Source of the DNA: Staphylococcus phage Machias
Reading direction: 5' to 3' (one strand)
Length of the DNA: 64,000 bases
Sequence record: MW349128.1
Below the pieces are notes generated by a model. That model saw only the letters and a list, made by a program, of their open reading frames with translations. It was not told where the DNA came from and ran no database searches. Positions within the stretch are counted from its first letter, which is position 1. Every line of letters starts with the position of its first letter. Position numbers and translations under genes: made by a program. Below, piece by piece: positions 18,924 to 48,354 of this stretch.

Positions 18924-20258
18924 TTATTTAAAGTTTCTATAGAAATCATCAAGTCCATTAAGAACAGATTCTTCTAAGAAAACTTTAATAGTTTTATTAC
19001 TTTCTTTAATTGAAGCTAATTGAGATCCTTTATCGTAAATGATATTAGATTCATCAGCTTTATCAAATCCCATATCTTCAGCGATATATTTGATATTGTC
19101 TGAATTTTCTTTAATATAAGTTAAAACTTCTCTAGGAGAAAATTCTGTAACTTTACCGTTAGAAAACATATCAATTGATTCATTAACCATTTGTAAATCA
19201 CTAGTATTGTAATTATTATGATTCTCTGAAATTATATTTTGGATATAAGAATCTTGATGTGATGGAATTACACGTTATCTTAACTATATGATTTTCATAT
19301 AGACGAGACTATATCTTCCTAATTTATATTAGGTAATATATTTAGTCGTTGAACGGAATTTAATCCGATGCTGATTATCTTAATAAAGATTTCCAGCAAT
19401 TAATATTATTTATACTAAGCAATAATTTTTTACCCAGTCATACGTACATCTTAGCTATATGGTTTCCATATAGACGAGACTATATCATACTCTTAGTAAG
19501 AGCGAATATATTTAGTCGTTGAACAACTTGTATTAAGTTGATGCTAATTGGCTTAATTAAACTTCTTAGCAATTAATATTCTTTTTCATTATATATCACT
19601 ATATAAAGCTGCTATAATTTAACAGATTAATCTTAAAGGTTTAGTAACTTCTACTTCACCATTAGGTTTTCTTTCTATTTTACTAAAACCACGCATTGAG
19701 AAAGATACATCAGATTTTTGTCCAATTAAACCTTTCATATCCTTACCAGCTGATGTTTGAGCTGTTTCTACTTCTCCCATTAATTTATTACCATTCCACC
19801 AAGTTCTAGTGATAATATGAGAAATATTACGTTGATCAATATACATTTGACGTTTAGGTTCATCACTTAAAGGATGACCTGCAAATTATTATTCTTTATT
19901 ATTTTAATAAAGATTAGACTATATCATCTAGGTTATATATTTAGTCGTTGAACAACTTGTATTAAGTTGATGCTGATTACTTTAAATAAGATTTCAGCAA
20001 TTAATATAATTTAACGTGAGCCATTTTAACCTAAAACTCACCATAAAAAGTTCTTCTTGCTAATTTTTCTTGTACTACTGGACTATCTAAACCACTTTGG
20101 ATAACATCTTTACGATAAACACGACCATTACGGTTTTGTCTATCAGCTTCTTGTAACTCAGCAATGAATCTAACTGATTTATTATTATCTTGAACTACTT
20201 CTGGTTGAGAAGTTGTATTAGATTCATTAATAATGTAAGCTTTAATATCTTTAGACAT
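18924..20258 (-). CDS. T4 gp21-like prohead core protease, split into 4 exons by three group I introns. Approximate exons: 20258..20034, 19881..19624, 19438..19424 (micro-exon), 19270..18924.
   Basis: Exon translations NRNGRVYRKD, GEF/GHP, ISHII, WWNGNKLMGEV, VSFSMRGFS align block by block with the NRNGRIYP / EWEHP / SSRGVG blocks of T4 gp21 as recalled from memory. Each ORF fragment stops within 0-2 codons of an intron 5' end, and reading-frame continuity can be restored across introns. Confidence 0.6.
19271..19423 (-). ncRNA. Group I intron (about 150 nt, no ORF) in the prohead protease gene
   Basis: P AATTGCTGGAAA, Q AATCAGCATC, R GTTCAACGACTAAAT, P8 CCTAATATAAATTAGG, S GAAGATATAGTC, P9 CTATATGAAAATCATATAG. 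Confidence 0.55.
19439..19623 (-). ncRNA. Group I intron (about 185 nt, no ORF) in the prohead protease gene, with covarying P/Q elements
   Basis: P TTAATTGCTAAGAAG and Q AATTAGCATC keep P4 pairing by compensatory changes; R GTTCAACGACTAAAT; P8 hairpin; S GATATAGTC; P9 hairpin CTATATGGAAACCATATAG. Confidence 0.55.
19882..20033 (-). ncRNA. Group I intron (compact, about 150 nt, no ORF) in the prohead protease gene
   Basis: On the minus strand: P TTAATTGCTGAAA, Q AATCAGCATC, R GTTCAACGACTAAAT, S GATGATATAGTC, then a P9 hairpin CTTTATTAAAATAATAAAG. Confidence 0.6.
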
Positions 20259-25092: not shown

Positions 25093-28000
25093 ATGAAGAC
25101 TATGGCTATAACAAAATTAAAGAAAAAAATTTATTACGATTATAAAACTAATAACGTAAGCTTTTTAAGAGTTGCTAAAGAACTTAAAGATAATAATATA
25201 CAAAATTATGGTCTACCATTAACTCTATATGATAAGAAATTAATTGGCGTTGATCCTTGGGATGAAGATTTAGATAATGAAATGAAAACTCGTGTTATTA
25301 GGGAAGCTAAACTTAATATATGGTTTTATTTAAGAGAAGTTATCAGAGTTCCAGTTCCAGGTGGTAAGGTAATGTATGAACTTCATAGAGGTAACTTAGC
25401 TATGACGTTTTGTATGCTGCATAATTTAGATACTGCAATAATGTTACCACGTCAGCACTATAAAACATATTCTGCAGTATGTTATTATTCATGGATTATG
25501 TTATTGGTAGGTAATAACTATACAATGTTATTTACACATAAATCATACTCGGACACTACTGAAAACCTTAAAAGATTAAAAAATCTATTCAAAGAGAAGT
25601 GTTTACCTGAATATGTATTAGCTAACTTTGGAGATAAAAATGATAGAGATAAAATTAATGAATTTTCTTTAGCAAGTAATAACAACACAATAAAAACAGT
25701 ATCACCTCCAACAAATGCTGAGAGTAAAATACGTGCTCTCATTAAACTCTATTAACTGCTGAAAAAGATACTAAACCAATCAGCATCAATCAAATTGATT
25801 GTTCAACGACTAAATATAGAGATAATTAATATTATAAGATATAGTCTAGTGTGTATGAATATCATACAATGTATTACGGCAAACAAAGCAGGAAGAGGTA
25901 GCACCGTATGTAGATGCAGTGCATAAAGATTTTTAATTGCTGGAAGACTAATAATGAAGTTAATCAGCATCACTTTAATTAGTGTTCAACGACTAAATAA
26001 AATCAATTTTAATAATTTTTACTGTTAACATTCCTTTATCAGTACGATAACGGAGGGATAAAATGCCTAAAGGTGTTAAAAGTAAAGAAAAATTCATAGA
26101 ACAAAAAAATAAAACTTTTAAAGAAATAAAAGATATCAATGGAGATAAATTTGAAATACTGGGAGAGTATAAAAATTCTAAAGAACCAATTAAATGTCAT
26201 TGTAATATATGTGATAGAGATTTTTTCTTACCTACTGAAAAACTAAGATTAAAAAGAAAATTCTGTAATAGAAAAGATTGTAGATATTCAGAAAAACCCA
26301 AGAATTCTAAAGGTAAAGAAACTTTTTTAATAGAATTAAAAGATAAGTTCGGATTTAATTATACTTATATTGAAGGATTCAATGGAATGAATAAAAAGTG
26401 TAGATTCCGTTGTGGAAAATGTGGAAATATAAGATATTTTGCAAAGCCTTCTACTCTAATGGATAAAAGAAAGAAGTATAATTCAGTAAACTGTAACAGA
26501 TGTATAAATAATGAAAATTATATCATATTAGATAGTCAAGAATTATCTAAAAAGACAACAGAAGAGTTTCAAGGTGAATTAGATATGATATTTGGATATA
26601 ATAAATTTAATGTGTTAACTGAATATACTAGGAGCAAAGATTATATCTATTTGAAGAGTAATGACTGTGGACACAAATTTAAAACGAGACCAGATGATAT
26701 ACTTAAAAGAAAAAGATGTAGTGTATGTTCTAAAAGTATAGGAGAAATTGCCATCATTGAATTACTTCAAGAGAATAATGTAGAATATGAGAATGAAGTT
26801 ACTTTTGAAGGATCTAGTTTTAGATTTGATTTTTATTTTAAAAAAATAAATACTGTAGTTGAAGTAGATGGAAAAGGTCATATAAAAGGTTATGGAAATT
26901 TCATTAATGATAAAAGAAACAAAAGCAAAAGAACACCTGAAGATATAAAAAAATTAGATAATGAAAAAGATGAATTTATAAGAAGCAAAGGAATAAATAT
27001 GATACGTCTCCCTTACCAGAATAGAATAAATGAAGAATTAATTATCCCTATGAAAAAATTATTAAAATTATGATATAGTCTGATCTGCATGGATTATCAT
27101 GTAGTTTAACGTAAATGACCTATGGTTTGGCTTGATGAGTGGGCGTTTATACCGCATAATCAAGTAATGTTTGAAGCGATGAGTAAAAAGGCTCCATCTT
27201 TATAGAAATATAGATGATGAATAATATTAACTGCTGAAAAGTTTAAAAACCAATCAGCATCATTAAATAATGTTCAACGACTAAATTTATTAAATCTTAA
27301 AAAGATTATGATATAGTCTGATCTGCATGGATTATCATGCAGCTAACATAAATGACCAGCAATAAGTACAGCTTCAAGAATTGCAAAAGAAAATGGTTCT
27401 CCTTATGGACTTCTTATCACAACTACACCTAAAATGACTGGGTGAAGATAAATTAAAATTTATCTTAAGGACTTTATTAATTGCTGAAAGGTCCTTAGAG
27501 CTTAATGAGCTACAACGTGACTGGCAACAGTGAGCGTGATATGCTTAAAAATCATTAAGATTGGAAAATCAGCAGCTAATTTTCAATTTAATAAATTATT
27601 AAATCAATAATGAACAACTCTTTATACAAAAGATGTAGGAGTTGGTAATTTTGGATTTTTATGAAAAATTAAATAAAAAATTTGATAACAGTATAATAAC
27701 AAAAGAAAAATATATAAACGGCAATGAAAAGATTAAATTCTATTGTAAAAATTGTAAAAATTATTTTTATTCTAAACCTAGAAAAATTATTGAATCATCT
27801 TATAAATCATGTCATTTATGTAGGAAAAGGGAAAAAGAAAATATATTTAGGAATAATCTCATTAATATGATAAATAAAGAAATATATGAAATTATTGAAA
27901 TGAAAGATCCTATAAAAAATAATGAAAAATTTTCTTTAAAACATAAAGAATGTGGAAATATCTTTTCTATATCAGTGAGTAATTTTAAAAAAGGAAGAAA

Positions 28001-32954: not shown

Positions 32955-35900
32955 ATGCCAAAAGAAATAGATTTAACTTCAGAAAAATTTAAAGATTATT
33001 CATATAACGAATTAAACTCAAGAGGTTCACAATTAAAAGATGGTAATTTAGATTTAGAATTTGAATTAGCTTCAGTTAAAAAATACTTTTTAGATAATGT
33101 AAATAAAAATGTAAGATACTTTAAAACTTATAAAGAAAAAATTAACTATTTAGTAGATAATGATTATATTGATGGAGATATGATCAAAAATTATGATTTT
33201 GAATTTATTAAAGGATTAATGAAAGAATTAATGGCTTATAAACATAGATTCACTCGTTTATTAGGAGCTAAAAAATTCTATGAACAGTATGCAATGAAAG
33301 ATGATGCAGGAGAAATCTTATTAGAACTATATGAAGATAGAATTTTATTTGTAGCTTTATATTTAGCTGACGGTGATGAAGAATTAGCTAGAAATATTGC
33401 TAATGAAATTATTACAGGAACTTTCCAACCTGCCACACCAACATTCCTTAATGCAGGTAGAGTACGTTCTGGAGAATTAGTAAGTTGTTTCTTATTAACT
33501 ATGGAAGACTCTTTATCATCTATTTATAGAAATATCTCTAATGTAGCTCAATTAAGTAAACGTGGTGGAGGCGTAGGTAAACTATATACGTTTCATTAAG
33601 ATTTTTGAAAATTATAAATCTTAAATGATACTAATGCCTACGAAAAATCGTGTGAACTCATACTAAAGGGGTGTCTAATTATAATAATTAGGCTAACGGT
33701 CATAGCAGTTAATTATGCTGGTAAGAGAGACTAAGTCCTATTAAATTGATAGGATAGAGTTAATACCGTGCCAAGCTTTATACTATTCATAGCTTCTAGA
33801 TGGGAGCTTGATAAAATGAAAGAAAATGAAATATTTAAACAATTAGAAGAATTTCCAGACTATGATTTTGGTAGTCATGGAACTATAATATCTTATAAGA
33901 CTAAAAATCCTAGAAAAATTATACCCAAGATTGATAAGAATGGTTATCATGAAGTAGGATTGAGAGATTATACAAATAAAAGAAAATACAGAAAAGCACA
34001 TAGACTTATTCTATTAGCACATAATTATATAGAAAATTCAGAAGATATGCAAGTAAATCATATAAATGGTAAACCAGATGACAATCGTTTATCTAATTTA
34101 GAATGGTGTACATCTAAAGAAAATATGAAACATGCATATAATATTCTTAGTAAAAATAAAGATAATAATAAATTTAAAATAGAAGTTTTGATTAAAGATA
34201 AAAATGATAATATTTTTAATTTTGAATCTATGAGTAAAGCTTCAGTATTTATCAAAAGTTCTGTTGGTGGTCTAAGATCTTTCTGGGTTAGAAGAAAAAG
34301 ACCTACAAATGAATTTATTAAATATAAAGATTATGATATAATGTTTAAGCCTAGTGAAAACTGGATTAAAGAATATGGAAAAGAAATTGTTTAAAGTTAT
34401 GAATAGTAAATTGAAGGTGTAGAGACTATCGAAAAGAAAGTTTAATTACTTTACTTAGTAGAGTAGGTCAGAGATTAGTACTGATCGAAGTGCATGGCAT
34501 ATTATTTTAAATAATATGAAGATATAGTCCACTCATTATAGAAATATAGTGGTTAAAGTGATTAGTTTAAGTAATTTACGTGCTGACAATGATCCAATTA
34601 AAGGTGTTGAAGGTGCAGCTTCAGGTGTAGTTCCAGTTATGAAAGTATTTGAAGATACTTTATCATATGTAAATCAACTGGGTTAATTTTAATGGCTCAG
34701 TATAAATATTGTTAATTGCTGGAAAAGTTTACAAGCTTAATCAGCATCAATCAAGATGATTGTTCAACGACTAAATATAATAATACTTATTAATAGTATA
34801 AGATATAGTCTAATCTATATGAATTTCATATAGTTAATATAAATGCAACGTAATGGAGCTGGAGCTCTTTATTTAAATATTTTCCATAAAGATGTAGTAA
34901 AATTCTTAGATACTAAGAAAGAAAATGCTGATGAAAAAGTAAGATTAAAAACTATTTCATTAGGTTTAACAGTTCCAGATAAATATTATCAATTAGTTAA
35001 AGAAAATAAATCATTATATACATTTAGTCCATATGACATTAAAAAATATTACGATTTAGATTTCGATAGTATTGACTTTAATACTTATTATGATATCTTT
35101 GTAGATGATAAACGTATTAGTAAAGAGAAAATGTATGCTCGTGATTTAGAAACTACTATTAGTAAATTACAACAAGAATCTGGTTATCCTTATATCATTA
35201 ATATTGATACAGCTAATAGAGCTAATCCAATTAGTCATGGTACAATTAAAATGAGTAACTTGTGTAGCGAAATTCTACAAGTACAATACCCTTCATTAGT
35301 TGACGATAATCAACAATATGTTAAAACAGGAACAGACGTTTCATGTAATTTAGCTTCAACTATTGTACCTGGTTTAATGAAATCAAAAGACTTTGGTAAA
35401 TCAGTTGGAACTATGTTAAGAAGTTTAAATTCAGTAGCAGAAAAATCTAATATTGAAGCTGTACCTACAGTTAAGAAAGCTAATGATCTATTCCATACAG
35501 TTGGTTTAGGTGCAATGGGATTACACACTTATTTAGCTGAAAACCATATTCAATATGGATCAGAAGAATCTAAAGACTTTACTAATATTTATTTCATGTT
35601 ATTAAACTATTGGACATTAGTTGAATCAAATAAAATTGCTAAAGAAAAAGATGAGTCATTCTATTTATTTGAAAAAACTGAATATGCTGATGGCTCTTAC
35701 TTTGATAAACGTTATATTGGTAAAAATATTCAACCACGTACTGAAAAAGTTAAAGAATTATTTGAAGATATCTTTATTCCATCTGATAGTGATTGGGAAC
35801 AATTAAGAAATAATATTGTTATGGACGGTCTATACAATCAAAATAGATTAGCTGTAGCACCTAATGGTTCTATTGGTTATGTTAGAGAAGTATCACCTTC

Positions 35901-43039: not shown

Positions 43040-45202
43040 TTAATAATTTATTCTAGAGTATATGTGACATAATGTTATAATATCTAAATTCTCAGTTTCA
43101 TTCAATAATCTGTCTTTCCAATTTTCTCCGAGATCGTATATTGTTTCACCAATTTCACTTTCAGTAAAATTCTGTAGCGGAACTAATTTAGCGTCATACT
43201 TATTAAATTTGTTAATATATCCATCATAAGTATAATCTTGACTCAGATATTTAATGGATTCAAATACAAAAGGTTTAAATATCATATATCTATCAAATTG
43301 CATATCATCATGTATCATTAAAATTTTAGGTAAATAATGAGATTTTATTGGGAAAGAAATATCTAAATTCTGTATTGGATTTTTATATCTAATATCGAAT
43401 TCTAATTTTCTAGTGTTATAATCAAATTCATTAATAGCATAATATATAGGAGGTTTTTCTATATAAAACTCAATATTATCTTCAGTATCTATATATTCAC
43501 TAATACTTCTAAATGATCTTGATTTTTCACCATCAATATTATTTAATTCATCATCATTATTTGTTTCTACATAATCCTTAAATATGAAATAATGATCTTT
43601 AAGATTAGGGTATAATAATGCTTTTGGATTGACATCTGAATGTTTTTCAATGGTATTTGAATTTATTATCAATGAGTCAAATAAAAAATTATTTTCATCA
43701 GACACTGTTATTTTAATTTCATTTTCTTTTTTCAGATATACTTCTTTAATACGATCATCTATACCTATATCAGTATTTCTCTTATATAAAGATAATGTAC
43801 ATAAATCATTATGATCTCCATATACTTTAGCTAAGTAATTTTTACCATTTATACTAATTATTGCTTCTTCTTTTTTATTATTAACTTCATTCCTATTTTT
43901 TCTTCTAAACAGTAAATTGAATGTGTACATTCCGGATTCAGTTAATTTGATTTCATTTTTAAGTGTACCTGTTAAAATTGTAAATTTATTGTTCATTCTA
44001 TTAACTTCATCAATAGAAGTTAATTTACCATCTATCTTTACAGTTTCTAAAATATTTCCAGTACCCATATTTAATGAATCATTATCTACATAAAAATCAC
44101 TCATTGGAATTATAGTACGAGTGCCAATCTTAAAGTCGTTATAAGTTTTAACATAAAAAGGATTTTTGGATTCAGGAACTTCAGTCTCTTGAAGTATAAT
44201 AATATCTATATCATTATTTTTAGTAGAGAATCTTTCATCGTATTCAAATTTAAACGTATGTTTTCCTTTTTCCAAATACAATGGTACTTCTTCATAAAAT
44301 TCATTTTCTGAATCTCTATAAAATTCTAATATAGATCTATTCCATATAAATTCCCTATCTGTCGGAGATCTAAAATAGTACCCTACATTATCTACAAATA
44401 CTTTGTTCACTGTACCATTACTAAAATGGTTTCCATTTTTACATCTAATTTCATAATAAGAAGAATTAGGAATATAAATGTTCATTTCCAATATTCCATC
44501 CTCAATAGTTACATAACCTTCTCCAAGAAATCTATCATATCCTGATTTTCTTTTATAAGCTCCATCAAAGTTACTTTCCCTTGTTTTATATATATCACCT
44601 AGATATGCATCATAAAATATCCTACCGTCATCTAATAATCCTTCATGTATTAGTCCATCTATAATTTCAGATTCTTTTAATACTTTACGATTATAAGCAT
44701 AATCTTTAGGATACTTTCTATTATCTTGATATATTGGTGGGTAAGGTTCGATTTTCACTTCCTTTCTTTCTATACTATTAAAAGACAAATCTTCATATTC
44801 TATATTCCCTATGAAGTTTGTGTCATAAATTCTCTCTGTTTTACCTAAATAATTATAGAATATAGTAAATAAGTCATATTTTAATTCACCAATAATTTCA
44901 TAAGGTCTTTCTTCATATACTAAAATATCTGAAGAAATATCCTCTAATCTAAAGGTTGGATTCTCTAAACCATATTCACTTTTGATATAATCTTCTGATT
45001 TTGGAATATCAAGTGTATTATCTTCATTAAATGTAAATTTATTATATTCCTCAGAATTAGATTCCACTCTTAATATTAATTTATCACTTTTCTTTGTTTT
45101 AGTTTCGATTAAAGTTTTATTTTCATTATCTTTAATTTTAGTTATTACAATGTCTCCAGAATTGTGTTTATCAATTAATTCTTCTATTCTATATAATTTC
45201 AT
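43040..45202 (-). CDS. Hypothetical large structural protein (720 aa), last gene of the minus-strand tail module; baseplate candidate
   Basis: Complete ORF in the tail gene block. Confidence 0.4.
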   Translation of the reverse strand: MKLYRIEELIDKHNSGDIVITKIKDNENKTLIETKTKKSDKLILRVESNSEEYNKFTFNEDNTLDIPKSEDYIKSEYGLENPTFRLEDISSDILVYEERPYEIIGELKYDLFTIFYNYLGKTERIYDTNFIGNIEYEDLSFNSIERKEVKIEPYPPIYQDNRKYPKDYAYNRKVLKESEIIDGLIHEGLLDDGRIFYDAYLGDIYKTRESNFDGAYKRKSGYDRFLGEGYVTIEDGILEMNIYIPNSSYYEIRCKNGNHFSNGTVNKVFVDNVGYYFRSPTDREFIWNRSILEFYRDSENEFYEEVPLYLEKGKHTFKFEYDERFSTKNNDIDIIILQETEVPESKNPFYVKTYNDFKIGTRTIIPMSDFYVDNDSLNMGTGNILETVKIDGKLTSIDEVNRMNNKFTILTGTLKNEIKLTESGMYTFNLLFRRKNRNEVNNKKEEAIISINGKNYLAKVYGDHNDLCTLSLYKRNTDIGIDDRIKEVYLKKENEIKITVSDENNFLFDSLIINSNTIEKHSDVNPKALLYPNLKDHYFIFKDYVETNNDDELNNIDGEKSRSFRSISEYIDTEDNIEFYIEKPPIYYAINEFDYNTRKLEFDIRYKNPIQNLDISFPIKSHYLPKILMIHDDMQFDRYMIFKPFVFESIKYLSQDYTYDGYINKFNKYDAKLVPLQNFTESEIGETIYDLGENWKDRLLNETENLDIITLCHIYSRINY

Positions 45203-45236
45203 AATTTTAGTTCCTTTCAGTTATGTTAATTTTAAA

Positions 45237-45829
45237 TTAAGTAAACATATTCAATCCCGGATTATTTGGATGGGGATTATATTGGGATTTATATCCATAA
45301 ATTGCATCATCAATTTGTTGTTGAAAAACTCTTCCTTTAATTACTTGCATACTTCTAGAATATTGAGTTTTCATATTAATTTGAGCTTTATCAATAATGG
45401 ATAGTTGATCTCTTCTAATTCCTGCTAAGCAATCAATATAAGATAATAATCCTGTATTAAATTTCATTCTTTGGAATGATTTAGAAGCCATTAAGTTTGG
45501 ATACATATCTCTAATATTAATAGATACAGTAATTTCTCTTGGGAAACCATCTGCAGTCCATGTACCTTCTTCACCACGAACTATATTCATTGAAGTTATT
45601 ATACCTGTATTACATTCAAATCTACCAGGACAATTAGCTCTAATAATAAACGGTTGCTTATAAGAGAATATTGAATCTTGTAAAGGTAAAGCTAATACTA
45701 ATAATGAAAGAAATGGTAAATATACATTGTCAAATATAGATTGTGGATCTCCATAAGCACTATAGAATTTAAATTCTAGATTATAAGTACGGTCAAAAGT
45801 TGAATTCATCCAAACCTGGTTTGTTAAAT
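45237..45829 (-). CDS. Downstream exon (exon 2) of a tail/baseplate gene interrupted by the IStron-like element. The open frame extends upstream of the annotated ATG to about 45829.
   Basis: The frame stays open for 10 codons upstream of the ATG (NQDLTNQVW), up to a G at 45830 that can serve as the intron terminal G. Confidence 0.35.
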
Positions 45830-45839
45830 CTTGATTTTA

Positions 45840-46070
45840 TATATTAAATATAAAGGCAAGACCTTGTATAAAATACACTTGGCTCAGTGACTAACGTATA
45901 AGGGAACCCTTATACTCCTTGTAAAGCTAATCGGACATTAGCTTATCACCCGTTTATCGTCTCCCGCTACCCGCAGGCGACTCTCATATCTTTTATTTTG
46001 TGAGATTAAACATATTTTAAATCTAGAATATTTTTAGCTGCATTTAAATCTCTATCAAGAACTACATCAC
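45840..46070 (-). ncRNA. Candidate TnpB omegaRNA (reRNA) scaffold / IS right end overlapping the tnpB 3' end
   Basis: Locally GC-rich (unlike the surroundings) with several hairpins on the minus strand: GCTAATGTCCGATTAGC, TATAAGGGTTCCCTTATA, CGCCTGCGGGTAGCGGGAG. Sits immediately 3' of tnpB, where omegaRNAs are encoded. Confidence 0.4.
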
Positions 46071-47199
46071 AATTAGGACAATCATGAGTATCATCACCTA
46101 AAACTAATTTCTCTTTATTAGTTCTAACATAACCACATGATGAACATGTCTGTGTAGTCTTTTTCTTAGTAATAATATTTAATTCATTATCATAAAAATT
46201 AGATTTAAATTTTAATTTTTCTAAAAAATCATACTTACCAAATCTTCTATTAGAACGTCTAAGATTTCTGAATCTATCAGATATTTTATGTGGATATGGT
46301 TCTATATTGATTACTTTATAATTTTTAACTAACCAATTAGTAATTTTGTCCCTATGATCTTCCAACATATCATATTCTCTATTATAAGACTTTCTTAATT
46401 GTTTTAAAAGTTTGTAATATGATTTTGAATAATATTTTTTTCTATCTAATTTAGATTTAATTTTTTCAGTTTTTCTTTCTTGTTTCCATAGAATATTCGG
46501 TATTTTAAATTCAAATACTTGACCGTTTGAGTCTACAGCAGCTAAAGGAGTTTTTATCCCCATATCAATACCAATTGAATAATTATTTTCTCTCTGTTTC
46601 TTATAATTGATTATCTCATAAGTTATAGAGATGTAGAATTTTTCATTCTTTCTGCTTATGGTGTAATATTTAAAATTAATATCGTTAGAGTTAATAAATT
46701 TTAAAGATTCCTTAGTTTTAATAACAAAAGGTTTAATTCCTTTCATTGCAGAAACTCTTATCCATTTTTTAGATAAAAATTTTACAGGTAAACTTAGTTT
46801 ATCTTTAACTATAAATCTAAATGAATCGTTAGAATATTTTTTCTTTTTAAATTTAGGTTTAAATTTATCACTATCTATATAATTTTTAGATTTTCTAGCT
46901 TTACTCTGCATTTCATAGTATTTAGAAAAAGTCTGATTTAGATCTTTTAAAGCTTCTTGTCTAACCATACTATTAACTTCATAAAGATAAGGATAATTTC
47001 CAGAATTTTGAATTTCGTTGTTTAATTTCTTTTGAAAATCAAATCCACTAAATTTCTTATCATCATCAATATTCTGATAATCTTCTAAAGCCATATTCCA
47101 TACTTTTCTTCTTACACCAAAGCATTTATTGAAATAATTCTTTTGGTCTTGATTTGGGTATATTCTAGTTTTGAAAGATTTAACTATTCCTTTTTTCAT
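46006..47199 (-). CDS. tnpB: TnpB (IS200/IS605-family RNA-guided nuclease, OrfB), apparently intact
   Basis: RuvC-I SIGIDMGIKTPLAAV, RuvC-II E in KVINIEPY, zinc finger CSSCGYV...CPNCDVV, RuvC-III DRDLNAAKNIL; strong SD AGGAGGTG. Confidence 0.85.
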   Translation of the reverse strand: MKKGIVKSFKTRIYPNQDQKNYFNKCFGVRRKVWNMALEDYQNIDDDKKFSGFDFQKKLNNEIQNSGNYPYLYEVNSMVRQEALKDLNQTFSKYYEMQSKARKSKNYIDSDKFKPKFKKKKYSNDSFRFIVKDKLSLPVKFLSKKWIRVSAMKGIKPFVIKTKESLKFINSNDINFKYYTISRKNEKFYISITYEIINYKKQRENNYSIGIDMGIKTPLAAVDSNGQVFEFKIPNILWKQERKTEKIKSKLDRKKYYSKSYYKLLKQLRKSYNREYDMLEDHRDKITNWLVKNYKVINIEPYPHKISDRFRNLRRSNRRFGKYDFLEKLKFKSNFYDNELNIITKKKTTQTCSSCGYVRTNKEKLVLGDDTHDCPNCDVVLDRDLNAAKNILDLKYV

Positions 47200-47453
47200 T
47201 GTTTAATTTCACCTCCTAATCATATTATATAAATATGTTAGGAAATTCCTGATATGAATTTTTTATCAGTATTTTATACAATCTCTAAATTAGTAATTTA
47301 GAGCACAGACTATATCATACTCATTGATATGAGTGAATATATTTAGTCGTTGGACAAGTCTTATTGACTTGATGCTGATTGAGATAATAATCTATTCCAG
47401 CAATTAATATTCTTTGCTAATTAAAATTACTTTTAATAGGGACTATTTGTGTG

Positions 47454-48354
47454 AATAATCCGGATAATACATTGATGCACCATCTAAATGTTCCATAAAG
47501 TTACCTACAATACCACCAATAACTGGCATATTTGCTACCATATCATTAATACTATCTTTAATAGTTCTAGTAATTTTACCTAAAATAGAAGCTCCACCAA
47601 TACGAGCCATTTCTTTTTGTTCTCGTATTTCTTGGTTTTTATTATTAACTTGAGAAGCAATATCAGATTGATTATATTCATGCATTGCAGATTCTGATAT
47701 ACTAGTTGATTTATCTGCATAGTAAGCTAGTCCATAGTTTTTATCATCTTGTAGAGATCCACCTAGATCAAATGATCCTTTTAAACCCATTGATGCATGA
47801 ACTTGAGAAGCCATAGTTTGTACGTATTTATAATATTCAGCCATTTTAGGTTCAAAGCTTATCATACGACCATCTTTAGTATTACCGATACCTACTAAAG
47901 ATAAACCAGAGTTTACTAATCTATCCATTCCTTCACCAAAACTCCATAATTTACCTTCTCCTGGTTTACCAAATAATTTACCATTTAATTTAGGCATACC
48001 CGGCATTATAAATACTAAAGGTAAATCTAATTCAAATGTTCTTTTATATATTCTTCTATTAGGATCATCTAAACTAGAATAGTACATAGGCATTCCAAAT
48101 ACATCTAGTTCACCTTTAACATTTCTTAATTGTTTTTTATCTTTAGCATTTTTATCTGTTAAATATTCAGTTGCTTGTCTTTGATTACCCAAAGCATCCA
48201 TAAAAGCACCAGTATCTTTTTGAGTAGGATCATATTCATGATAGTCATAATCACCTTTTTTCTCATCAGCTTGAGGTATTAAAGCCATATCATCATCTGC
48301 CACTTTTAAAGGTTCTTGTTCCTTAGACTCTTTTTTATCTTTTTCTTCAGCCAA
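47454..48354 (-). CDS. Upstream exon (exon 1, 303 aa as an ORF) of the tail/baseplate gene interrupted by the IStron-like element
   Basis: The ORF stops (TAG 47443-47445) a few codons inside the group I intron 5' region, the same pattern as all other intron-split genes in this window. Confidence 0.45.

Follow-up and report, generated by a model that had tools for sequence, protein, structure and literature searches.

An IStron-like insert with a putative TnpB omegaRNA scaffold in Staphylococcus jumbo phage Machias

Layout of the locus

The window analysed is a stretch of 64,000 nt from the genome of Staphylococcus phage Machias (MW349128.1). Staphylococcus jumbo phages of this type are presumed by their describers to have uracil-substituted DNA, and the Machias description paper reports many intron-split genes and homing endonucleases, with TnpB and IStrons not mentioned. 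On the minus strand of the window a protein-coding gene is split by a 1642-nt insert that carries, from 5' to 3', a group I ribozyme core, tnpB and a putative omegaRNA scaffold. The features and the evidence used to place them are:

45816-47457, minus strand: whole IStron-like insert, 1642 nt (missing from the uninterrupted PB50 and S6 homologues)
47458-47462, minus strand: last 5 nt of exon 1, CGGAT (PB50 comparison; 5' strand of P1; candidate TAM)
47283-47457, minus strand: group I ribozyme core, P1 to P9 (covariation; RF00028 on relatives)
47212-47243, minus strand: hairpin UCCUAA...UUAGGAGG over the tnpB ribosome-binding site (read from the sequence)
46006-47199, minus strand: tnpB, 397 aa plus stop codon (Pfam domains; intact catalytic residues)
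45982-46005, minus strand: hairpin UCUCA...UGAGA between the tnpB stop and SL1 (minimum-free-energy fold)
45816-45982, minus strand: putative omegaRNA scaffold, 167 nt (family alignment and RNAalifold)
45796-45815, minus strand: predicted guide GTTTGGATGAATTCAACTTT, first 20 nt of exon 2 (conservation ends after the terminal G)

The insert and the interrupted gene

BLAST against phage genomes found the interrupted gene intact in PB50 and AH12 (96-97% identical) and in S6-type phages; the PB50 homologue is annotated as a 'virion protein' of 491 aa. PB50 is 97% identical in the flanks, and the insert boundary was set by alignment to its intact gene, which bears out the proposal of the earlier note that the DNA flanking the element is the downstream exon. 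Excision of the insert rejoins the exons in frame (...MYYPD|VWMNSTFDR), as in PB50. Exon 1 ends in ...CCGGAT and the insert in ...AACAAACCAG; a U precedes the 5' splice site and the final nucleotide of the insert is G, both according to group I rules. The phage is viable although a virion-protein gene is interrupted, and the insert is therefore presumably removed by splicing.

As in IStrons, a group I ribozyme lies at the 5' end and the splice sites are the ends of the element. tnpB is present and intact and no tnpA was found, which resembles the published 'ORF B only' IStrons (PMC4227781). The search for a TnpA-like ORF was done by tblastn and was negative in the window and in all of phage LY01 (OR836606.1), with an IS608 TnpA probe, and is weak as negative evidence.

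Next to the insert, synonymous exon positions depart from those of intron-less relatives (CCG GAT against CCC/CCT GAT, 47458-47463), and the first 20 nt of exon 2 (45796-45815) carry three changes in the comparison with PB50 (L001) and S6 (L003). The synonymous differences fit co-conversion, or selection for P1 pairing or for a TAM, and would bear on whether intron-less relatives can be cut.

Group I ribozyme core

The core lies within the first 175 nt of the insert and was divided as follows:

47461-47440, minus strand: P1, with a compensatory A-U to G-C change
47414, minus strand: start of P3/P4
47352-47335, minus strand: P7 5' strand and P3'
47316-47307, minus strand: P7'
47306-47304, minus strand: J7/9 (GUG)
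47303-47283, minus strand: P9

In P1 (GGAU|UAUU with AAUAGUCC) the compensatory change is found in the LY01 copies, and U47458, the splice-site U, is paired to G. Small introns sharing this core form a family that counts 7 members in the window and 32 in LY01. A structure comprising P3-P4-P5-P6-P7-P3'-P8-P7', with P3 and P7 crossing, was scored over 39 family members. Paired cells made up 93.7%, and 165 cells held double changes against 57 in shuffles; slid controls were only 29-44% paired.

RF00028 (Intron_gpI, gathering threshold 50 bits) scored 61 bits on homologous segments just upstream of tnpB in two distant relatives (L010 and L014). The match covers the whole model through P9, and the catalytic core is therefore complete before tnpB, as in the IStron layout (PMC4227781). 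The core in the window gave no RF00028 match, either over the whole window at the gathering threshold or over 45200-48000 at E<=10; the Staphylococcus-phage cores are reduced versions of the group I core. No convincing P10 pairing of exon 2 with the internal guide sequence was seen on inspection by eye.

Six further small introns with the same core (AAUUGCUGG...CAACGACUAAAU...GAUAUAGUCU), without tnpB and without omegaRNA, are present in the window. Three lie in tandem within ~700 nt (19.3-20.0 kb), apparently with very short exons between them:

19306-20007, minus strand: TnpB-less introns
25750-25818, plus strand: TnpB-less intron
27220-27320, plus strand: TnpB-less intron
34712-34811, plus strand: TnpB-less intron

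A metagenomic relative (L097) has a second group I core ~1.2 kb upstream of its tnpB-bearing intron; multiple introns per gene region therefore occur in uncultured relatives too.

tnpB

The 397-aa ORF was identified as TnpB because it matches three Pfam domains (HTH_OrfB_IS605, OrfB_IS605 and Cas12f1-like_TNB). Its product is 100% identical to 'transposase [Staphylococcus phage Machias]'. Two close copies, with TnpB 80% identical, were found in other genes of LY01. Machias TnpB and all close copies retain an intact RuvC triad (D212/E300/D384) and CxxC...CxxC zinc finger, and the catalytic columns are kept across 31 homologues. Synonymous divergence of tnpB among the three copies (Machias and the two of LY01) is 0.5-0.67, and dN/dS against the LY01 copies is 0.13-0.23, a ratio by which tnpB is shown to be under purifying selection.

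The Shine-Dalgarno sequence of tnpB (AGGAGG) is paired inside the UCCUAA...UUAGGAGG hairpin, and a CCUAAC...GUUAGGAGG arrangement is also found in the distant relatives L010, L014 and L101. By analogy with other intron-encoded phage endonucleases, this suggests translational control of tnpB.

Exact-protein look-ups of two other Machias TnpB paralogues (P0003 and P0005) returned no record. IMG/VR was searched with the single TnpB protein, which gave no relatives, and with a TnpB protein alignment, which gave only generic TnpBs at 25-32% identity; these were left out of the analysis, apart from inspection of L016. LY01 has four more TnpB-like genes (53.8-55.0, 62.3-63.5, 183.0-184.2 and 230.3-231.4 kb), just 25-28% identical to Machias TnpB, some of them annotated as 'mobile element protein' or 'transposase'.

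The structured segment 3' of tnpB

The earlier note had drawn attention to a GC-rich, hairpin-forming segment downstream of the tnpB stop, which it placed at 45840-46070. GC content is 26.4% over the whole window, 37.4% at 45816-46005 and 47.7% at 45880-45990, a level that just 0.02% of 111-nt windows attain. The hairpins it named were located on the minus strand at 45942-45926 (GCTAATGTCCGATTAGC) and 45914-45897 (TATAAGGGTTCCCTTATA), with CGCCTGCGGG at 45979-45970 and CGGGAG at 45966-45961. The 190-nt RNA 46005-45816 folds with -49 kcal/mol (z = -3.1 against dinucleotide shuffles). Composition and folding were confirmed in this way, and the limits were moved: the structured element reaches 45816, 24 nt past 45840, and 46006-46070 is tnpB coding sequence. 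Its parts are:

45981-45959, minus strand: SL1, with PK-1 (GGU) in the loop at 45971-45969
45958-45951, minus strand: GAUAAACG junction
45950-45947 with 45884-45881, minus strand: long-range helix H2
45942-45926, 45914-45897 and 45878-45866, minus strand: scaffold hairpins
45863-45827, minus strand: terminal helix
45826-45816, minus strand: tail UAACAAACCAG, with PK-2 (ACC) at 45820-45818 and the terminal G at 45816

The scaffold starts 24 nt past the tnpB stop (46006) and ends at the insertion boundary, and the same layout was found in at least 12 relatives. The UCUCA...UGAGA hairpin between stop and SL1 occurs in the Staphylococcus-phage copies only; the relatives have no equivalent conserved sequence there.

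The GGU of the SL1 loop (45971-45969) pairs with the ACC at 45820-45818, which ends two nt before the last G of the insert. This pseudoknot, defined as SL1 loop positions 2-4 with tail positions -4 to -2, was added to the SL1 and H2 helices given by RNAalifold. Over 13 sequences the combined structure is 96.9% paired; slid partners gave 20-59%, and 0/500 shuffles reached the observed value. All three pseudoknot pairs show double changes: most sequences have GUC/GAC, the window has GGU/ACC, L096 has AAU/AUU and L103 has GUU/AAC. The structure result was reproduced on a second alignment. A U.G wobble in SL1 is conserved in 11/13 sequences, and one H2 pair is a G.A mismatch in the three Staphylococcus-phage copies.

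In the MAFFT alignment of the whole scaffold the middle hairpins and the terminal helix do not line up correctly from one subgroup to another, and formal counting was therefore confined to SL1, H2, the pseudoknot and P9.0 (see below). For the hairpins at 45914-45897 and 45852-45834, covariation was taken straight from the three close copies (Machias and two of LY01), whose 3' segments are 90-93% identical against a tnpB synonymous divergence of 0.5-0.67. One hairpin shows a compensatory series, UAUAAGGG/CCCUUAUA against ACAGAGG/CCUCUAU against GAGAGAG/CUCUCUU, and the second an A-U / G.U / G-C series. The enclosing stem (45861-45856 with 45833-45828) was assessed by comparison with L010, L014 and L101. 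No curated Rfam family matches the scaffold (whole window at gathering threshold, and 45200-48000 at E<=10).

The segment at 45982-45816 (minus strand) is probably, at a rough probability of 80%, the omegaRNA scaffold of the adjacent TnpB, as the earlier note had proposed, within a TnpA-less IStron-like insert. We infer the RNA function from a conserved, covarying structure 3' of tnpB, and homology to characterised omegaRNAs is by architecture and tnpB linkage, not by alignment to a characterised sequence.

Relatives and distribution

A search with a scaffold profile matched the window once, at 45983-45816, and matched none of the six TnpB-less introns. Protein searches found relatives in metagenomic phages (TnpB 34-48% identical), each at a different insertion site and splitting prohead-protease, DnaB-like and other genes. 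In all of these the RNA 3' of tnpB ends in UAACAAGACAG or a variant, followed by unrelated flanks.

The motif GTCRCC-N11-GGAGAC-RATAAAYG was scanned in one genome per prokaryotic species (bacteria and archaea). It gave 75 matches, 62 of them with a TnpB ORF immediately upstream on the same strand, in Poribacteria, Streptomyces, Micromonospora, cyanobacteria, Asgard archaea and Parcubacteria (loci L275-L349). Poribacteria have dozens of such elements per genome, ending in ...ACAACGG, in which the loop AGUUG pairs with AAC before the terminal CGG, in the same register as in the phage. Judged by motif and predicted pairing, the 5' module and the pseudoknot logic are thus common to the phage RNA and the RNAs of ordinary TnpB elements.

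Two other candidates were rejected. Ninety IMG/VR matches to GGGAGACGATAAAYG were attributed to chance, as no upstream SL1 arm was correctly placed in any of them. The TnpB region of Clostridioides phage HGP05, tried as a CdISt1-type comparator, looked like an ordinary IS605-type element with nothing like the intron core or the omegaRNA.

LY01 also contains a derivative of ~290 nt (~60180-59891, minus strand; L005 10994-10891) in which the intron core and P9 are fused to the 3' two-thirds of the scaffold. It is without tnpB and SL1, is preceded by TTGAT and ends in ...UUUAACAAGACAG. The derivative looks like a tnpB deletion that retained the intron ends. With the 3' two-thirds retained, some of the scaffold may also have a role in splicing, or may just persist after the deletion.

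Predicted guide and target-adjacent motif

The junction of scaffold and guide is the 3' splice site (45816|45815). Conservation between copies stops right after the terminal G (...CAG): the tail UAACAAGACAG is conserved, and the 24 nt past the G differ in nearly every copy, the exception being L196 and L198, which share a site. As scaffold conservation and the pseudoknot extend to within two nt of the boundary, the guide is predicted to start at 45815; its length would be 16-20 nt by analogy with characterised TnpB systems. The earlier note had the guide ending near 45830-45845. Those positions fall in the last helix of the scaffold (45863-45827), which the conserved tail (45826-45816) follows. 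The interpretation given in the note, right in substance and wrong on the guide coordinates, is partly supported. A guide within the last 40 nt of the element, targeting the TnpB-less introns, was also considered and rejected, since these nucleotides are conserved, structured and engaged in the pseudoknot.

The intron-less sites read CCCGAT|GTTTGGATGAACTCTACATT in PB50 and CCTGAT|GTATGGATGAACTCAAC in S6. The earlier note had suggested comparing the guide with the uninterrupted target in related phages; of the closest intron-less sites, PB50 differs from the guide predicted here at positions 12, 15 and 18 and S6 at positions 3 and 12, which counts against the proposed reading.

The 5' flank is CGGAT in 3/3 close copies (Machias and the two of LY01), ATGAT in L096, TTGAT in the LY01 mini element and NGGT in more distant copies. 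They are similar to TTGAT, the site of both IS605-type elements and group A IStrons (PMC4227781). CGGAT is a candidate TAM; because the same bases form P1, a motif read by the protein is inseparable here from P1 pairing.

Proposed overlap of splicing and guide-RNA formation

In the 12 elements scored for P9.0, the two nt before the terminal G pair with J7/9, which joins J7/9 to the last nucleotides of the insert ~1.5 kb away. Each of the two pairs is formed in 100% of them and each covaries (most elements have UG/CA, L097 and L100 have CG/CG, and L096 has UA/UA). As evidence of covariation, P9.0 and the pseudoknot are short helices (2 and 3 bp) that vary in few independent lineages.

C45818 (position -2) is both the 3' end of PK-2 (45820-45818) and the first nucleotide of P9.0 (45818-45817), so that guide-RNA formation and 3' splice-site use physically overlap, as had been suggested. 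In L096 the -2 nucleotide is U and both its partners are A. Because C45818 is needed in both pairings, the omegaRNA fold and 3' splice-site docking would be mutually exclusive. Such antagonism is experimental in the IStron of Clostridium botulinum described below; in the Machias element we infer it from covariation only.

The following model is proposed. For splicing, J7/9 (U47305, G47304) would dock on C45818-A45817 as P9.0, G45816 would enter the G-binding site, and the exons would be ligated to restore the virion-protein mRNA. The same cut would part the scaffold from the guide. Alternatively, the transcript would be processed to a guide RNA: the SL1 loop GGU (45971-45969) would pair with A45820-C45818, the pseudoknot would form and TnpB would bind, with the first 16-20 nt of exon 2 (45815 to ~45796) acting as guide. 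If CGGAT is the TAM, the predicted cleavage target is CGGAT-GTTTGGATGAATTCAAC, and TnpB-omegaRNA would cut intron-less alleles (...GAT, then GTTTGGATGAA...) in co-infecting relatives. Repair off the intron-bearing genome would then copy the element in (homing).

Elements were found at different sites, in different genes, in Machias, LY01 and the metagenomic phages, which indicates recent mobility. As no TnpA was found with the weak probe in the window and LY01, homing is the most likely means of spread, and homing of TnpA-less IStrons has been anticipated by a 2026 review (PMC13565253). The wider reading is offered tentatively, at somewhat below even odds. It holds that a TnpA-less IStron of lytic Staphylococcus jumbo phages uses TnpB as an RNA-guided homing endonuclease guided by its own downstream exon, that the element thereby spreads, or excludes intron-less competitors, at co-infection, and that the C45818 switch balances virion protein against guide RNA.

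Alternative explanations

The segment could be nothing more than a P9.x-type extension at the 3' periphery of the group I intron, which would help to fold or dock the 3' splice site and have no guide function. TnpB-less introns of the family have 3' tails similar to its own (UAAC...G), its last nucleotides are engaged in P9.0, and the tnpB-less LY01 derivative retains its 3' two-thirds beside the intron core. Against this, TnpB-less introns (six in the window, ~30 in LY01) run from P9 to the 3' splice site in ~12 nt and, that one derivative excepted, give no profile match. Apart from the derivative the segment always travels with tnpB, the SL1 module, in a scan for the motif and an upstream TnpB ORF, adjoins tnpB in bacterial IS elements, and in L010 and L014 the Rfam group I model is complete before the tnpB start. 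A purely splicing role was accordingly judged quite improbable. The probability that the hairpins act as DNA, as right-end subterminal structures for an IS200/IS605 TnpA supplied in trans, is very low. The omegaRNA stem-loops of IS605 elements do coincide with right-end DNA hairpins (PMC10690162), and the target-like motifs ending in GAT resemble the IS605-type TTGAT (PMC4227781). However, the weak tblastn probe detected no TnpA-like ORF in the window or in all of LY01, and the SL1 U.G wobble (11/13) and the long-range pseudoknot fit a sense-strand RNA better than a single-stranded DNA hairpin.

It is unlikely, if somewhat less so than these two, that RNA and TnpB are a relic or have been repurposed, with a scaffold that folds and a TnpB that cuts no DNA and serves as an RNA-guided repressor or splicing modulator. 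Domesticated TnpB relatives, such as TldR, are known in phages (PMC10705468), and TnpB binding represses splicing in CboIStron (PMC10690162); with no TnpA found in the same searches, classical transposition would not be ongoing. The intact RuvC triad and zinc finger of all close copies speak against loss of cleavage, as do the low dN/dS (0.13-0.23) and the recent mobility implied by insertion in different sites and genes of Machias, LY01 and the metagenomic phages. The guides also match the adjacent exon, which is a requirement of homing.

Discussion

In group A IStrons (CdISt1-type), an IS200/IS605 element is joined to a group I intron of type IA2 (Tourasse 2014, PMC4227781). The Machias insert is like them in having the ribozyme core 5' and tnpB 3', in splice sites that are the element ends, and in interrupting protein-coding genes in frame; its 5' exon ends with the T of ...GAT (cf. 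TTGAT) and the element ends in CAG (cf. TCAG). Unlike them, it is without TnpA, none having been detected in the phage with the weak probe, and dozens of TnpB-less mini-introns with the same core occur beside it. Its host is a lytic AR9-like Staphylococcus jumbo phage, whereas group A IStrons are hosted by chromosomes of Clostridia, Enterococcus and Fusobacterium. Machias TnpB is just ~25-28% identical to the phage-borne TnpBs of the phage collection.

CboIStron is an IS607-type IStron of Clostridium botulinum in which PK-2 lies within nucleotides that splicing needs as well, and splicing and omegaRNA maturation exclude one another (PMC10690162; PMC13521648). As there, an upstream stem-loop (PK-1) is predicted in Machias to be pseudoknotted with the last scaffold nucleotides (PK-2), and splicing would part scaffold from guide. 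A serine-recombinase TnpA and a TGGG TAM belong to CboIStron, whose 5' splice site follows a G and whose terminus is CGG; in the Machias element a U closes the 5' exon, CAG forms the terminus and no transposase was found. The interplay of omegaRNA and intron that the earlier note put forward had already been demonstrated by experiment in these C. botulinum IStrons (PMC10690162; PMC13521648).

ISDra2 TnpB-omegaRNA (Karvelis 2021, PMC8612924) likewise has a right-end guide RNA 3' of tnpB with a flank-derived guide, and the TTGAT-like 5' flanks found here (CGGAT, ATGAT and TTGAT) are a further likeness. ISDra2 is without an intron, and its likeness to the Machias element is one of architecture, not of omegaRNA alignment. 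T4 td/I-TevI and the PhiPA3 intron endonuclease (PMC11620839) are similar in combining a self-splicing intron in an essential phage gene with a nuclease ORF that lies outside the core and has its ribosome-binding site sequestered in a hairpin; spread in these systems, as expected for Machias, is by homing at co-infection. Unlike these, the Machias nuclease would be RNA-guided, by a guide within the intron-exon transcript itself.

IStrons are known that contain tnpB only, and others have been described in C. botulinum phages (PMC4227781). No report of IStrons in lytic or jumbo phages was found in the literature searched, the coverage of which was incomplete. The mechanism has been published, and the gain is in breadth and detail, not in a new principle. 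The omegaRNA 5' module GUCRCC-N11-GGAGAC-RAUAAAYG is widely conserved, is absent from Rfam and could help to annotate TnpB guide RNAs. Natural variants narrow the overlap of pseudoknot and P9.0 to single nucleotides, which makes the balance between splicing and guide RNA easy to test by mutation. With these findings the range of IStrons, so far bacterial chromosomes and Clostridium prophages, comes to include lytic jumbo phages and several uncultured phages, where, with no transposase found, RNA-guided homing at co-infection would be the only plausible route of spread.
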